A DNA stretch of 64,000 nucleotides from Agriterribacter sp. (GCA_047601125.1 JASGJY010000001.1:913344-977343), one strand, 5' to 3'. Shown: positions 1 to 5,982, numbered from the stretch's first letter. Program-made: numbers and translations. Notes: generated by a model not told the origin, from the sequence alone.

Positions 1-308
1 CTTTTAATGCTTCGTGCACTAAGCTCAAATTGGCAAACATTTTTTTAAGACGGGCATTCTCATCTTCTAATTCCTTAACCCTTTTGAGTTCGTTGGCATC
101 TAATCCCCCATAGCGCTGTCTCCATTTGTAAAATGCAGCGGTAGTTATACCTAAATCTCTACAAATGTCTTTAGCTTCCCGACCATTTTCATGCTCCTGG
201 ATAGCTTTAACGATTTGAGTTTCAGTAAATCTTGTCTTCTTCATAATTGTATTTTAAAAGTACTTCATTTTTGTACTTTTAAATGAACGAAGATTGGGGA
301 AGGGCACA
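1..308 (-). mobile_element. IS3-family insertion sequence, left end (continues beyond window start)
   Basis: OrfA-type HTH transposase on minus strand; putative terminal repeat begins 5'-TGTGCCCTTCCCC at 308 (IS3 ends begin with TG). Confidence 0.8.
2..244 (-). CDS. IS3-family transposase OrfA (3'-partial, not in ORF track)
   Basis: Manual translation [75 protein letters not shown]..., typical IS3/IS407-group OrfA. Confidence 0.9.
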
Positions 309-865
309 ACTGTGAGATTCTGTTTTATGAATTTGTCCGATCACTGACAACACCATTTGCAGATTCTTCCTGGTTAACTGTTTCCTCGGAAGAAGGAGCT
401 GAGGTTGAAAAAATTAAAAATCGGAATCTTTTTGTTGCAGATTCTTCCAATATTGCAAATATTTTACATGAATATATTGTCATTGGCAAAATAGATAGTA
501 TTTCACAGATTGACTCTCTCATATCTAAATGCAGGGAACAGATATATTCTTTTAGGAACCTTATTTATGAAAAATTTAAAAACAACATTAATAACATAGG
601 TATTAAACCTTTACGGTTTTCAAAAGATAAGTTTATTTATGAACATTTAGCCGATTATCAGCGGGATAACACTTTTGTGCTTTTTAACAAATCGAAGCCA
701 GATGATGTTATATCTTATATTTTGTTTATTCCCCGGGGTATGCAATATCCCGGCTCTCCAATTAGGATTTTATCATGGCGGTTGATCATTGACGGTGCTT
801 TCTATTATCAATTCGTTTCCGGTGTGGATAGATTGGAGTATCTGATTTTTGTTGGGCATCATTAA
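309..865 (+). pseudogene. 5'-disrupted gene remnant, paralog of the 880..1434 secreted protein
   Basis: Frame open from 419 to stop at 865 (148 codons) with no start codon until GTG 677; by-eye similarity to the downstream ORF; abuts the IS end. Confidence 0.6.
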
Positions 866-879
866 TAAAATATTATAAA

Positions 880-1434
880 ATGAAAAAATATATCCCTGCC
901 TCAATAAAAGTAATCCTTGTTTTTCTATTGGTCAATGCACATATTGGAACGCTCAGTGCTCAATCCAACAATTGGACAAAAGATGAGGCGGAATACTATA
1001 AAAAAATGAAATCTCTTTGTGAGTATATTCAGAATGAAAGGTATGATACAGCCAGAAGAGGGTTGATTTTTAAAGAATTTATATACTTTGATAACGTTTT
1101 AAGTGATACCTCCATAGTTCATATCAGGGAGAGAACACAATGGTTCGACGGTTTATTTATTATGTTGATCCGTTTTGTTGATTCTGTAGGGCTAAGCAAT
1201 TTAGATGCCGTACCTACCAGGTTTTTTAAAGCAGATACAACCTTTTTTGAACCTTACGGGTCTGGCGGAGATCTTGAAGATTGTACACCATACACGCTTA
1301 CGTACTTTGATAAACGGCACCCTGAACACCCAATTGGCACCTTGTTGTTTGAAGTCGGAACACATAAACTTTTATCATGGATCGTTTTAAACCAGGGAGG
1401 CTACCGTTATTTCCTGACTTTCAATCTTATGTAA
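880..1434 (+). CDS. hypothetical secreted protein, 184 aa
   Basis: N-terminal MKKY plus hydrophobic stretch ending LSAQ (Sec signal peptide); no recognisable family. Confidence 0.8.
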   Translation: MKKYIPASIKVILVFLLVNAHIGTLSAQSNNWTKDEAEYYKKMKSLCEYIQNERYDTARRGLIFKEFIYFDNVLSDTSIVHIRERTQWFDGLFIMLIRFVDSVGLSNLDAVPTRFFKADTTFFEPYGSGGDLEDCTPYTLTYFDKRHPEHPIGTLLFEVGTHKLLSWIVLNQGGYRYFLTFNLM

Positions 1435-1488
1435 GCTTCGGTTCGCGTTGATTTAAATAATATATGAGCAACAGTCGGAATAAATTAT

Positions 1489-3294
1489 ATGCAAATCATT
1501 GCACATATTAAAAATTTGTTTGCAGCCGCTGCACTAACCTTTGGATTATACATCTTCTTATTTCATAGTATTTTTAGTTATAACTTTTCTATCGAAATAA
1601 CACCACATTATTCAATTCTTCCGGTCGCTTTAGGAATTTCTTTTCTCTTTATTCTATTACTTATAGTATCAGGAGATAGGGTTAAATTAACAATAACAGA
1701 TTGTGTTATTCTATGTTTGCTGAGCATAGCTTTGCTATATGTATACATTGATGAGTCTTCAGAAAGTTTGAATAATGAATACTTCGCCGCATTAATCATT
1801 ACGGCATTAGCTTTTGTAATTGCCAGGTTTTCTAATGGATGGGTATTGAATTATTATATTCCCATAATTTTTTCCGTTTCCTTCTTGTGGGAGCTATATA
1901 TGGGCTTAAGACAACTGCTGCAAGCTGGGCATGACTTTGAGCAGAGCTCTTTATTAATAACCGGAAGCCTGGAAAATTCTGGCATATATTCTATTTATTT
2001 GTGTGTCTGTTTTCCGTTGTTCTTATATTCTTTCTATTTGTGTTTATTTGTTTCTTCTTCATTACGTACAATATTGATCTGCTTAATATCAGTATTTGTA
2101 TTTGGGCTTCTTTTGGTAGCCAAATCCCGAACAGCTTTATTGATTTTTTCATTCTCGTTAACAGTACTAATATGGCATAAGAAAAAAAATGAAACAAAAA
2201 AAATTATATCTCTTCTAAAAGCTAATTTTTTTTCCACTATCATGTTTGTTATTAGCGTGATATTAACAGGATACGTTCTGTATTTCTGGAAAGAAGGTTC
2301 GTCTTTAGGTAGATTGTTTATTTGGAAAGTTAGCATAGTAAGAAGTTTTGATAACGTGTTTGCTGGTATTGGTGTAGGCAATTTTTCCTATCAATATCCT
2401 CTTTGGCAGATTGAATATGTAGCTTCTAAAGATATTTTACCAAAGCAATTATTGCATATAGATGAAACCAAGATAGCTTATAATGAATTTTTGCAAATCT
2501 TTATTGAAACAGGCTTACTGGGGTTTGGTATTTTTATATTTATTCTTTTTTGTGCGCTTAGAACAAGAGTAGAGCGTACTTGTAAGCTATCCTTTTTGCT
2601 AAAACTATCATTAGCTTCAATTGTATTAGGGAGTCTTACTTCGTATCCTTTACATTGCAATTCGATTTTATTTCTTTTTGCCATAATTATCGCCATTTTA
2701 TCTTCAATAGGTAATACCCTAAATAGAAGTTCTTTTGTTAGAATGAGGAAGGGGTCATCTGTCTTTTTCTTATTGCTTTTGAATGTCCTGGTCTTATCGG
2801 CTTTTTTTAAAACATTTAATTATTACAAGCATGAGCGGATATGGGAAATGCTTAGAGAAGATTATACATTGCTGCCGCACCAAATTGAACGGAAATATGA
2901 TAGTCTCCTTGATTATCAAAATACAAACGGAAAATTTTTGCTTGATTTCGGTGAAAAACTTTATGGCATAGGAAAATATAAAAAGAGCATAGACTTAATA
3001 GAAAGGAGTAAAGCGTTCTATATTTCCGAAAGGACTTTCAATATTGCTATGCAAGCTAAATTAAGATGTGCCGATACTCTTGCTGCAATTGACGAAGCTA
3101 AAAACTTATGCTATATCGCTCCTTACAAATTCACTCCAAAATATGAATTGGTAAAATTATACCTCAGTACAGGAGATAGCGGCAGCGCAAAAAAGTTAGC
3201 GGAGAATATTTTGTACATGCCTGTAAAAGTCTCATCCGATAGGATTAGTTTAATTAAGAATGAAATGAATATTTTATTAAATGAAGTAAAATGA
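1489..3294 (+). CDS. O-antigen ligase (Wzy_C)-like polytopic membrane protein with C-terminal TPR-like region
   Basis: Many TM segments; motifs KSRTA, GRLFIW, GIGVGNF, AYNEFLQIFIETGLLG; helical TPR-like tail. Confidence 0.8.
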   Translation: MQIIAHIKNLFAAAALTFGLYIFLFHSIFSYNFSIEITPHYSILPVALGISFLFILLLIVSGDRVKLTITDCVILCLLSIALLYVYIDESSESLNNEYFAALIITALAFVIARFSNGWVLNYYIPIIFSVSFLWELYMGLRQLLQAGHDFEQSSLLITGSLENSGIYSIYLCVCFPLFLYSFYLCLFVSSSLRTILICLISVFVFGLLLVAKSRTALLIFSFSLTVLIWHKKKNETKKIISLLKANFFSTIMFVISVILTGYVLYFWKEGSSLGRLFIWKVSIVRSFDNVFAGIGVGNFSYQYPLWQIEYVASKDILPKQLLHIDETKIAYNEFLQIFIETGLLGFGIFIFILFCALRTRVERTCKLSFLLKLSLASIVLGSLTSYPLHCNSILFLFAIIIAILSSIGNTLNRSSFVRMRKGSSVFFLLLLNVLVLSAFFKTFNYYKHERIWEMLREDYTLLPHQIERKYDSLLDYQNTNGKFLLDFGEKLYGIGKYKKSIDLIERSKAFYISERTFNIAMQAKLRCADTLAAIDEAKNLCYIAPYKFTPKYELVKLYLSTGDSGSAKKLAENILYMPVKVSSDRISLIKNEMNILLNEVK

Positions 3295-4814
3295 ATACAA
3301 CTTCTGGAATTAATAGAATGCGAAAAAAAATTATACTATGGGGAATCATTTTATCCATGTTGTATTGTTGCAATTACTATAGAAAAGGCGGTGCTTTTGA
3401 TGCCATAATTAATGAGTATTCGAAAAATATCAAAGATTCTATTGAGCGTGAATCTGCAATATTTCTGAAGGAAAATATGAAGGATATTATGAGCGATAAA
3501 GTGAATTTCTATGACGACCATTTCAAAGAAATTGAATTATCTCTGGACGAGTTTAAATCCGAAGCGAGTCTGTTATCCTTTATGGGTAAAAAAAAGTTAG
3601 ATTATGAAATGTGTGTTGTTCCAGATACACAAATAGTTACTGCGATATATTTGAAAAATAATATAAAATATGCCATAAACAGTTGGAATAAATACCCCTG
3701 GTGTAAAAATATTCCAAAAAATATTTTTTTGAATTATTTGTTGCCGTACAAAGTATTTCAGGAATATCCGCAAGAGTGGAGACAATATTTTTTTTCTAAG
3801 TATAAGGATTCTATAGATGTTGCTTTAAAGAGGTATCAATACGATTCTGCGGATATATATGCAATTGATCCTAATGAGCTATATTATCGTATCGTTGTAG
3901 ATGATGCGGGAAAATGGTATAAGTATTCAGACTTTTTTGTTAAATTAACTCAATATCCATCATTGAGTGAATTGTTATGTATTGGCAAGGGAAGTTGTAG
4001 TGAGACTTCAATATTGAATGTTTATATTCTTCGCTCTCTTGGTATTCCTGCAGCCGTTGATATTGTGCCGGTATGGGGATCAAAGAACGGTTCCCATACC
4101 AGCGAAGTTTTTTGGGACGGGAAAAACAAAATGCGTACGGCAAGTGGAAGAGAATTTGAAAGACCAACAAAAGTATTTAGATTAAGCTTTAAAAAACAAA
4201 ATTATTGGAATGACTCAGTATCTCTTTTTGTAGACAGAGAGAATTTTATGTTGCCATATTTAATGAATAATCATTGGATTGATGTTACCGAGGAACATAC
4301 TAAAACCGTTGATATAAATGTTTTAATAGATACGCTAATTTTACCTGATTTTGCTTATATATGTGTATATAATTATGGGCAGTGGCAGCCTGCATTCTGG
4401 GGCAAAATTGAAAACAAAAAGGCTGAATTTAAAAAAATGGGATACCCAATGATTTATCGTATAGCTGTGCCAGACAGAACCGGATTTGCTCTTTTAAACA
4501 AAATATTATTAGTAGATGAAGATGGGAAGTTAAACTATATAGGACCAACCAAAGAAAATATTAAACATATTGTTTTAGAAAAAACTAATGCCGGAGAAAA
4601 ATCTTACGTGCAACAACAGAATGTTTATGAACTTTTTCTATTAGACGAGAGAAGCCAATGGATTTCATTAGGCAAAAAAAAATGCCTTAGAGATTCTTTA
4701 ATTACTTTTTCAAATGTTCCTCAAAACGCATTATTGCGCCTGGTTAATATAGCAGGCAAAAAAAACCTTGAAAGAATTTTTACATATCAGAATAATAAAC
4801 AAGTTTGGTGGTGA
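3291..4814 (+). CDS. transglutaminase-like domain protein, probable lipoprotein (start may be 3318)
   Basis: GSCSETSILNVYILRSLGIPA (Cys) and GSHTSEVFWD (His/Asp); N-terminal hydrophobic segment ending LYCC; overlaps previous stop (ATGA). Confidence 0.8.
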   Translation: MNTTSGINRMRKKIILWGIILSMLYCCNYYRKGGAFDAIINEYSKNIKDSIERESAIFLKENMKDIMSDKVNFYDDHFKEIELSLDEFKSEASLLSFMGKKKLDYEMCVVPDTQIVTAIYLKNNIKYAINSWNKYPWCKNIPKNIFLNYLLPYKVFQEYPQEWRQYFFSKYKDSIDVALKRYQYDSADIYAIDPNELYYRIVVDDAGKWYKYSDFFVKLTQYPSLSELLCIGKGSCSETSILNVYILRSLGIPAAVDIVPVWGSKNGSHTSEVFWDGKNKMRTASGREFERPTKVFRLSFKKQNYWNDSVSLFVDRENFMLPYLMNNHWIDVTEEHTKTVDINVLIDTLILPDFAYICVYNYGQWQPAFWGKIENKKAEFKKMGYPMIYRIAVPDRTGFALLNKILLVDEDGKLNYIGPTKENIKHIVLEKTNAGEKSYVQQQNVYELFLLDERSQWISLGKKKCLRDSLITFSNVPQNALLRLVNIAGKKNLERIFTYQNNKQVWW

Positions 4815-4823
4815 CGGTAAATA

Positions 4824-5399
4824 CTATTTATTTTTTTTTATTCTGCTTAATGTTTCAATAGTGATCCCAAGATATGAGGCTATATAGCCAGATGGAACCC
4901 GCCGAATGATTTCAGGAAAATGCGTTCGCAAATATTCAAATCTTTCCACTGCTTTTTGCGAACGCATCGAATATAATCTTTGTTCACTAAGCGTATAATA
5001 ATTTTCTGTTAACACCCTGCCCATAATATTAAACTCCGGGAAGTTTTTATACAAATAGTCTAATTCACTATGACTGATATAATGCACTATAGAATCTTCA
5101 ATAGACTGTATGTCCTCATTACTTGCCGTTCTTCTGAAAAAACTTTCAACAGATATTATAATATCATTTTCTTTCATAAACCAGGAGCAGATTTCTTTTC
5201 CATTTGCATTATAATAACATCGAAACAGACCTTTTTCAATAAAGAAAATATCATTACAAACATGTCCTTTTCTTAATAAAAAAGATTTTTTAGGAACGTC
5301 CTTAGTTTTTAATAACTTAATCAGGGCATCTTGAAGCCCTTCCGATAATGGGTAGATGGACGAGAAGAGATTGAAAAGATAATTCATAAGTTTAAGCAA
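4824..5399 (-). CDS. Crp/Fnr family transcriptional regulator
   Basis: cNMP-binding-like FIEKGLFRCYY...ESF and C-terminal HTH IASYLGITIETLSRI. Confidence 0.9.
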   Translation of the reverse strand: MLKLMNYLFNLFSSIYPLSEGLQDALIKLLKTKDVPKKSFLLRKGHVCNDIFFIEKGLFRCYYNANGKEICSWFMKENDIIISVESFFRRTASNEDIQSIEDSIVHYISHSELDYLYKNFPEFNIMGRVLTENYYTLSEQRLYSMRSQKAVERFEYLRTHFPEIIRRVPSGYIASYLGITIETLSRIKKNK

Positions 5400-5574
5400 A
5401 AAGGTAATTTGTCAAAGACGAAAAAAATAATGACTGCTTTAAAATTACAAATATCCCGTTACGGAAAAGTTTTTTGGAAAAATTTAGATCGCGGAGCTAT
5501 CAAATTTTAATGCCCCACTGCTTTTTTCCCATTTTTTTCTTACATTTCCATGACAAACGCTAAATATTGCTATT

Positions 5575-5982
5575 ATGATCAAAATTTCTGAAGTTAAAAA
5601 CGGAGATATTGTAAATGCACGTTTTGAAGATGTAATCAATACCGGGGAGGTAATACAGGTAGACCGGGAAGAAAGAAAAGCGCTGGTTTCTCATGGCGAC
5701 CAGGAATTTTGGTATGATACGGAGGATCTCAGTCCGGTACTTTTTACGGTAGACAGCCTCCCAACGTTAGGATTTATAGAATCCAGCGATCCTGTAATAA
5801 TGGGAACAGGCAGGGCTTTTGTAAAGGGGCCCTTTATCCTGCAGTTTCCCGATGCTGCCAATACTGATCATATTCACCTGATTTACAGGGATGAACACCG
5901 GGATATCAAAGGTCCGATATTTTTACACCAGTTGCAGAATCATTATCACTCCATGACCAATTTTCACCTGGAATTGTCTTAA
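5575..5982 (+). CDS. hypothetical protein
   Basis: 135-aa ORF with ATG start; no family recognised. Confidence 0.7.
   Translation: MIKISEVKNGDIVNARFEDVINTGEVIQVDREERKALVSHGDQEFWYDTEDLSPVLFTVDSLPTLGFIESSDPVIMGTGRAFVKGPFILQFPDAANTDHIHLIYRDEHRDIKGPIFLHQLQNHYHSMTNFHLELS

Follow-up and report, generated by a model that had tools for sequence, protein, structure and literature searches.

The ligase WaaL and the transferases PglL, PilO and PglS share a Wzy_C domain, two arginines and a large periplasmic loop. The arginines R215 and R288 are important for the function of Escherichia coli WaaL and are conserved among PglLs (R224/R298), and the histidine H338, also needed for WaaL function, is conserved in PglL as H349 (PMC3643930). 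In PglS, the H324A mutant is inactive (PMC12800693). Some polymorphic toxins are effectors that bear a lipobox and a conserved pro-domain, such as APD1/2 of Amoebophilus (Zhang et al. 2012, PMC3482391). Here we describe a locus of Agriterribacter sp. (GCA_047601125.1, JASGJY010000001.1:913344-977343; this whole stretch of 64,000 nucleotides is called the window below) in which a Wzy_C-family membrane protein with a tail of tetratricopeptide repeats (Wzy_C/TPR) is encoded next to a lipoprotein with a transglutaminase fold (TGase), at positions 309 to 5,399 and together with small exported proteins and a Crp/Fnr-family regulator. The individual domains are known. The literature searched yielded no paper describing the Wzy_C/TPR and TGase pair, and no description of this pair with a Crp/Fnr regulator alongside polymorphic toxins; the combination of a Wzy_C/TPR protein lacking the ligase His, a TGase partner, swappable exported cargo and a promoter with an FNR-type box thus appears to be undescribed there.

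Our survey showed that Wzy_C/TPR and TGase form a fixed pair across Bacteroidota that is not tied to glycan synthesis genes. Searches seeded with either gene each led to its partner. Among TGase loci of species genomes with enough flanking sequence, Wzy_C/TPR was found within ~8 kb, and mostly within ~3.5 kb, in 13 of 13; Sphingobacterium locus L033 was left out of this count, being too short to show the neighbour. The carriers were Agriterribacter, Chitinophaga, Pedobacter, Pelobium, Dysgonamonadaceae, Saprospiraceae and a metagenome-assembled genome (MAG) of an unclassified Bacteroidota. Of 401 Bacteroidota genomes sampled evenly, 10 had TGase (7 of 179 genera), and Wzy_C/TPR lay within 6 kb at 10 of the 12 TGase places; the two unpaired places were the weakest matches, one of them at a contig end. 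Homologues of Wzy_C/TPR never occurred in a glycan cluster with wzx, an initiating transferase or a glycosyltransferase (GT) in more than 20 independent loci. As a control, the plain 411-aa Wzy_C gene of the same genome sits with Poly_export, a Wzz/GNVR kinase, a Polysacc_synt_3 flippase and three GT4 genes. At the locus itself, no wzx or other flippase, glycosyltransferase or sugar-nucleotide gene lies within ~9 kb upstream or downstream. A first-pass annotation of this DNA had already noted the lack of such genes and had read the locus as something other than lipopolysaccharide (LPS) synthesis; our results agree with it on both points and speak against a capsule locus too. The gene-neighbourhood survey that it proposed found the genes co-conserved in an Agriterribacter MAG and the pairing of the two enzymes to be nearly universal.

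The features are listed below, with positions counted from the first nucleotide of the window.

1 to 306, minus strand: right-hand part of an IS3-family element; orfA starts at 244 (HTH_Tnp_1, 1.4e-21)
307 to 865, plus strand: small exported paralog A, 3' part of about 184 codons, split from its beginning by the IS3 element; the preceding ~33 codons, among them those of the signal peptide, are found on the left side of the IS3, outside the window
880 to 1434, plus strand: small exported protein B of the family here called small184, 184 aa, with a Sec signal peptide; possibly immunity-like or accessory
1489 to 3294, plus strand: polytopic membrane protein of the Wzy_C family, 601 aa, ending in a TPR tail of three repeats; R214 and R275 invariant, Y331 at the ligase His position
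2086 to 2538, plus strand: Wzy_C domain (aa 200-350, from Pfam and alignment), including the periplasmic loop with R275 and AYNEFLQ
2935 to 3228, plus strand: TPR repeats (aa ~483-580), periplasmic by predicted topology
3291 to 4814, plus strand: transglutaminase-fold lipoprotein, 507 aa; lipobox C27, invariant C236, D257 and H269, C-terminal half all-beta
4824 to 5399, minus strand: Crp/Fnr-family regulator, 191 aa, convergent with the operon
5400 to 5524, no strand: right border of the acquired island; from 5525 on, the sequence is again homologous to the closest relative

The neighbours of the pair differ from locus to locus, and almost all of them are exported proteins. Two patterns recur. 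In the commoner one, seen at 10 or more of ~22 non-redundant loci, a lipoprotein gene precedes genes for one to five small proteins that are exported or lie in the membrane; the other consists of Cys-rich DUF6520-like peptides with an outer-membrane barrel. The Agriterribacter MAG keeps the order LIPO452 (a ~450-aa lipoprotein family), small membrane protein, small184, Wzy_C/TPR, TGase and Crp, with identities to the window proteins of 55% (small184), 42% (Wzy_C/TPR), 51% (TGase) and 77% (Crp). Variants built of the same parts were found in two more genomes of the genus and on the metagenome contigs L018, L019 and L020.

The genome carries a second pair on its other contig (locus L007, G000 contig 2: 1565300-1579550), with 26-32% identity to the first and with the second neighbour pattern. 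This locus encodes an ECF sigma factor, a 742-aa TGase lipoprotein, a 948-aa OMP_b-brl_3 barrel, a 617-aa Wzy_C/TPR protein and five tandem peptides of ~65 aa, followed by DUF5128 propeller lipoproteins and a DUF1573 protein. The peptides are Cys-rich, have a signal peptide and share the motif SSFTGSGES...C..C.P.G.CP; three of the five match DUF6520 weakly, below its cut-off.

The membrane protein of the window scored 48.5 bits against Wzy_C (PF04932; cut-off 31.7), and its tail matched consensus TPR proteins over about three repeats, which agrees with the earlier description of an O-antigen-ligase-like protein with a TPR tail. Counting helices from the catalytic loop, with the Lys/Arg-rich loops placed inside according to the positive-inside rule, would put this tail in the periplasm. 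A profile search matched CmWaaL (7TPG; E 1.4e-5 to 2.4e-5), whose R191 and R265 align on R214 and R275. Both arginines are invariant in 14 sequences, and they correspond to R215/R288 of E. coli WaaL and R224/R298 of PglL. Ligases show an H(X10)G-type spacing, and the His column of the subfamily was placed by this spacing to a conserved Gly rather than by direct alignment to a solved ligase at that point. So placed, the column holds Tyr, Phe, Met or Leu in 14 of 14 members, in the context A-x-N-E-(F)-L-Q (Ala in 13 of 14, Asn invariant). The AYNEFLQ loop with Tyr at the usual His position, which had been singled out in this protein, is present as described, and none of the 14 members has His in that column. 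Because the catalytic His is replaced, a plain O-oligosaccharyltransferase is unlikely, and because the His is missing from the whole subfamily, transfer of the PglL or WaaL type is doubtful. Compared with WaaL and PglL, the protein also has an extra helix, a TPR tail predicted to be periplasmic, and a TGase-fold lipoprotein partner. Like PglL, it is encoded outside an LPS locus, and like enzymes that borrow a glycan linked to undecaprenyl pyrophosphate (Und-PP), it has no glycan genes of its own.

Two other identities for this protein were considered and rejected. A housekeeping O-antigen ligase does not fit a gene that is absent from most of the genus and from the corresponding site of the closest relative, in a genome with a cluster-encoded Wzy_C gene elsewhere. 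Likewise, the missing general O-oligosaccharyltransferase of Bacteroidota would hardly lack the His throughout its subfamily and have its TGase partner in only 10 of 401 sampled genomes. Broken Wzy_C/TPR genes were also observed, one split over three frames in Chitinophaga sedimenti (L030, 8126-9964) and one with nine stops in G062 (contig 14: 51153-52925). The adjacent TGase gene is intact in both loci, so the pair can decay asymmetrically.

The TGase gene starts on the end of the Wzy_C/TPR gene (ATGA overlap at 3291-3294), an arrangement that points to translational coupling of the two. Transglut_core (PF01841) gave 20.3 bits for the window protein, under the cut-off of 23; among its homologues, that of L023 reaches 25.5 bits, and several database homologues carry a precomputed PF01841 match. 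An AlphaFold2 model of the lipoprotein (pLDDT 90.4, pTM 0.87) was searched with Foldseek and matched TG2, TG3 and FXIII at E ~1e-4 and 3ISR, a putative Cys protease of Cytophaga hutchinsonii, with probability 0.99-1.0. This predicted structure confirmed a papain-like TGase core fold in the 507-aa lipoprotein, which has the fold and the Cys and His in common with these proteins and, like the animal transglutaminases, has beta-sandwich domains after the core. Its lipobox C27 is invariant in the close family, and C236, D257 and H269 are invariant in 12 members, down to ~25% identity. The protein differs from the TGase superfamily (PF01841) in being a lipoprotein and in having the Asp before the His: D257 lies on the strand preceding the His, and position 276 after it is Asp or Asn in the close family and variable in distant members. 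Of the Cys-His-Asp core claimed earlier, the fold and three invariant residues stood, with the invariant Asp ahead of the His in the sequence. An exhaustive profile search placed 1378 clusters at 50% identity in the TGase family (E <= 1e-30), and all named members are called 'hypothetical' or 'transglutaminase domain' proteins. Searching PDB chains with the small184, LIPO452 and TGase sequences, singly or as profiles, gave nothing useful. Overall, the profile and structure predictions called for at the outset placed Wzy_C and cNMP_binding above their cut-offs and supplied the TGase fold through AlphaFold2 and Foldseek.

The gene that heads the run lies outside the window, upstream of the IS3. 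In this genome, LIPO452 is split by a frameshift into two open reading frames (ORFs; L017, 9589-10647 and 10517-10912). In proteins of this family, a Gly-rich linker connects a conserved N-domain to a C-domain in which GH(T)F and NC motifs are invariant. H290 and C372 are invariant, and the predicted secondary structure, used with caution, puts the His at the start of a strand and the Cys at the N-terminus of a helix, which is compatible with a permuted papain-like fold in a low-confidence model (five sequences, pLDDT 55.7). The family is modular. An N-domain that we call fam7 is joined to three different C-domains, a papain-like H..NC domain (L038), a HExxH/SprT-like domain (L044; Pfam E 2e-4, below cut-off) and another one (L045), and the papain-like H..NC domain is joined to two different N-domains. 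Truncated ORFs with only the N-domain adjoin modular lipoproteins, and small exported or membrane genes always lie directly 3' of LIPO452-type genes; in some loci, these encode not small184 but an exported protein of 138 aa that is unrelated to it (sec138), together with a ~139-aa membrane protein (tm139).

Such a layout is that of polymorphic toxins, lipobox-bearing ones included; SitA/SitI of myxobacteria are lipoprotein toxins as well. The cassette resembles polymorphic toxin-immunity systems in its lipobox, N-domain, linker, swappable C-domain and truncated N-domain ORFs, and also in the small genes downstream, the mobile context and the presence of small184 relatives beside Imm8 and Imm9. 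It differs from them in that no recognised toxin or immunity family was found here.

The second gene of the run was interrupted by the IS3 element, which adjoins the rest of the run as first reported. The element is ~1.28 kb long, with ~970 bp left of the window and its last base at window position 306, and its ends read TGCCCTTCCC...GGGAAGGGCA. Five copies that are 100% identical, along with one relative at 67% identity, were found in the genome, and the element is probably still active there. The frame of paralog A is open from 311 to 865 and has no start codon before 677. Joining the flanks of the IS3, at a short repeated AACTGTG, restored a frame of ~215 aa with a signal peptide that begins MKYIYAFLLGSSFFFSNTLFAQENK... 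(a start also read as MKYIYAFLLGSSFFFSNTLFAQ...), so that paralog A must have been intact until the IS3 inserted. Because the joined flanks restore this signal peptide, both small paralogs can be counted as exported; only the intact copy had been credited with one before. Paralogs A and B share 25% identity in a pairwise comparison (E 0.011). Against a profile of 23 small184 members, the frame of paralog A scored 21.2 bits (E 1.2e-8), collinear over ~117 residues, and the best of 1000 shuffled sequences reached 7.3 bits. Since the score far exceeds those of the shuffles, A and B are real, old paralogs, and the relation first proposed between them holds.

The small184 protein had no match in Pfam, NCBIfam or PDB sequences, and 33 homologues with 38-62% identity were found. 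Four contigs (L047, L049, L053 and L054) carry small184 alone. In L048, it directly follows a LIPO452-type gene, with a Crp gene present and the enzyme pair absent. Furthermore, a Pfam Imm9 gene lies 260 bp from small184 in L054, and an Imm8 gene lies near small184 in L048. Such a distribution is easier to reconcile with immunity genes, some of them orphans, than with a client of the enzyme pair, and small184 looks like immunity or accessory cargo rather than the dedicated substrate of the pair.

A Crp/Fnr gene accompanies the cassette in eight loci. The window protein scored 36.2 bits against cNMP_binding (cut-off 27.5) and 15.6 bits against the Crp HTH (below the cut-off of 21), and its convergent gene is the Crp regulator of the first reading. 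Across the cassette proteins, NCBIfam and PADLOC returned no family except weak NCBIfam Fnr/CRP matches for this regulator. In all eight Crp-bearing cassettes, a TTGAY-N4-RTCAA palindrome is located 41-50 nt before the ATG of LIPO452 (TTGACAATTGTCAA at L017:9532 in this genome), and in seven of these a Bacteroidota -7-like TAnnTTT[GA] element begins 22-23 nt downstream of the palindrome. The palindrome had 13 matches in 525 kb of loci, 8 of which were the cassette promoters; the 64-kb window contains none, with 0.5 expected by chance. Scans for sigma-70 promoters and terminators remained at chance level, with a tool that does not cover Bacteroidota promoters. The box and the -7-like element are consistent with a putative activator-dependent promoter for the co-directional run, and the neighbouring Crp/Fnr protein probably binds the box. 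Like Crp/Fnr regulators with class II boxes of the type TTGAT-N4-ATCAA, the protein combines cNMP_binding with an HTH and the box, perfect or nearly so, stands 22-23 nt upstream of the -7 element. It differs from FNR in that its sequence reads without the N-terminal FNR Cys cluster and its promoter is of Bacteroidota type. A further FNR-type box (TTGACTTTCGTCAA) was seen at L023 7761, 240 nt upstream of a distant Wzy_C/TPR-TGase operon, with a DUF6520 gene diverging from the box and no Crp gene within the fetched flank.

Comparison of this site with two relatives defined the unit that was acquired. In the closest relative (G001), 627 bp separate the ABC gene, which is 97% identical in nucleotides, from the sequence matching window position 5525, and in another species (G009), 3.6 kb of unrelated DNA occupy the site; the island therefore extends from L017:9475 to window position 5524. 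It measures ~8 kb including the 1.28-kb IS3 and begins ~2.5 kb left of the window start, and positions 309-5399 are the larger, distal part of this horizontally acquired island. The GC content falls from 39-40% in the flanks to 32.4% in its region, which bears out the AT-rich island of the first-pass annotation, as do the ORFs and the overlap its co-directional, tightly linked run. On one side, the flanking genes encode a peptidase S41, a 3-keto-disaccharide hydrolase, a GSDH/cupredoxin protein, ThuA, a metallo-beta-lactamase-fold protein and the ABC exporter; on the other side lie infA-rpsM-rpsK. Holding 627 bp, 3.6 kb or 8 kb in the genomes compared, the intergenic site that separates the ABC exporter gene from infA is a place where accessory DNA accumulates, a local hot spot beside a ribosomal-protein operon. 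Just upstream of infA and outside the island, a 135-aa ORF (window 5575-5982) occupies the same place in two relatives and has no Pfam or NCBIfam match.

Within the genus, 6 of 25 genomes have the Wzy_C/TPR gene, and one more (G013) has a weak match to the C-terminal half only. Some other copies of the cassette lie near integrase, relaxase, RteC or DUF4134 genes, and a more distant Wzy_C/TPR-TGase pair (L027) lies near TraG-like conjugation genes. In a relative of the same genus (G002; L014, 2207-4069 and 10906-12509), a duplication of more than 1 kb of host genes (the 5' end of a flavoprotein gene and an acyltransferase gene) brackets the cassette, suggesting either that a long target was duplicated on insertion or that recombination left a scar. 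In the strain studied here, with its LIPO452 gene frameshifted and one small gene interrupted by an IS, the system is decaying.

We interpret the island as toxin/immunity-like cargo together with an accessory pair of envelope enzymes and a private Crp/Fnr regulator, and taken as a whole this interpretation has in our judgement an even chance of being right. The first-pass annotation had proposed a machine for exported proteins; the exported neighbours stood, and the LIPO452 gene and its promoter, both outside the window, shift the reading towards cargo of this kind with accessory enzymes. The island would be one activator-dependent operon plus its own regulator gene, with the FNR-type box and -7 element followed by LIPO452, the two small exported paralogs, Wzy_C/TPR and TGase, and with the Crp/Fnr gene in convergent orientation. 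LIPO452 would be an antibacterial effector, and the small exported proteins would be its periplasmic immunity or accessory proteins. Facing the periplasm, the enzyme pair would serve exported cargo as an accessory module for its maturation, anchoring or release. The TPR tail may dock the cargo or the lipoprotein partner, and the Wzy_C body, which keeps both pyrophosphate-binding arginines, could handle an Und-PP-linked glycan from elsewhere in the cell. The TGase could then provide thiol-dependent amide-bond chemistry, either cleaving the Gly-rich linker or transamidating the cargo onto the glycan.

Several observations weigh against this interpretation. The parts are separable, as the cassette of L019 lacks TGase and that of L048 has effector, small184 and Crp without the pair. 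Pfam, NCBIfam and PADLOC recognised no toxin domain in LIPO452, and its model, a poor one, had no significant fold match in Foldseek. Furthermore, small184 follows both C-domain subtypes of LIPO452 and sec138/tm139 follow only one. Without the His, the Wzy_C body may not work as a transferase of any kind. Finally, some pairs lie beside SusC/D-like or TonB-type genes, where a role in nutrient or glycan use fits as well.

A bolder version, which we regard as speculative and rather less likely than the general interpretation, is that the pair is a previously undescribed sortase-like pathway of periplasmic maturation or attachment in Bacteroidota. The TGase would form an acyl-enzyme on an exported cargo selected by the TPR tail, either a modular lipoprotein toxin or a Cys-rich peptide, and this acyl-enzyme would release the active part or transfer it to a lipid-linked glycan held on the Wzy_C body.

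Among the alternatives to cargo handling, envelope remodelling survives best, and we still consider it unlikely. Here, the His-less Wzy_C/TPR protein would be a Wzy-type polymerase or ligase acting on a lipid-linked glycan produced elsewhere, which the TGase trims or transfers. The altered surface would serve self-protection, receptor masking or phage resistance, and the link to toxins would be ecological, not mechanistic. The 411-aa cluster-encoded Wzy_C protein of the same genome also has Phe at the His position, so that a polytopic Wzy_C-type protein without the ligase His resembles a polymerase, and both arginines are kept. Sugar-binding domains of the discoidin type (F5/8 type C) are added in many TGase homologues, and the pair behaves as an accessory trait, patchy and carried on mobile elements, in some cases beside outer-membrane barrels or SusC/D genes. 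However, no flippase, initiating transferase or glycosyltransferase accompanies the pair in any locus, and the predicted periplasmic TPR tail and the invariant Cys, His and Asp point to a protein or peptide partner. In contrast to Wzy polymerases, the protein has TPR repeats, is mobile and patchy, and is never encoded beside wzx, wzz/wzc or GT genes. PADLOC recognised no defence family either, and an anti-phage defence system was rejected for want of its support.

Less probable still is the first-pass proposal of a dedicated extracytoplasmic protein-modification machine, in which the small paralogs are substrates of a PglL-like O-oligosaccharyltransferase and of a transglutaminase that cross-links or cleaves them. 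In its favour, PglL-type enzymes often adjoin their acceptor genes outside LPS loci (PMC3643930) and the general O-oligosaccharyltransferase of Bacteroidota has not yet been identified (PMC12871550). From their predicted topology, the TPR tail and the TGase face the periplasm, which is also the destination of the small proteins. In small184, aa 101-103 (window 1180-1188) form a near-invariant Asp-Ser-Val within the conserved block IDSVG. The O-glycosylation motif of Bacteroidota is D-(S/T)-(A/I/L/V/M/T), and D-S-V matches it; this tripeptide may be structural rather than a sequon, and paralog A lacks it. The His of WaaL and PglL (PMC3643930, PMC12800693) is absent from all members of the subfamily, which makes the glycosylating role first assigned to the Wzy_C protein doubtful. 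Exported proteins adjoin the pair, as acceptor genes adjoin PglL, but they vary by locus and most pairs have quite different neighbours, and small184 is also found where Wzy_C/TPR is missing. Because small184 occurs without the pair, both enzymes being missing from four of its contexts and a fifth offering no more than the lipoprotein and Crp genes, it is improbable that the adjacent paralogs are dedicated substrates, a role that had been suggested as possible.

That the island is a mosaic without functional links, its toxin/immunity genes, enzyme pair and regulator being independent passengers of a recombination hot spot, is the least probable of these. For it, the site is variable, cassette parts come in different combinations in L019 and L048, and decay is seen here (IS3, frameshift) and elsewhere (the broken Wzy genes of L030 and G062). 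Against it, unrelated contigs repeat the gene order although their proteins are only 40-77% identical, and in 8 of 8 loci the co-directional run begins with the sole FNR-type box of the cassette. Intergenic gaps are also short, with an ATGA overlap, and 10 or more of ~22 non-redundant loci have modular lipoproteins linked to the pair.

Even if the pair does not process cargo, a modular polymorphic lipoprotein family, an immunity-like exported family and a defined FNR-box promoter of Bacteroidota type stand. If the pair does process or anchor exported cargo, it would add an accessory pathway of a new kind to the interbacterial toxins of Bacteroidota from soil and gut, and a new activity to the O-antigen-ligase fold. 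The sortase-like pathway, if true, would be a new delivery route for polymorphic toxins in Bacteroidota.

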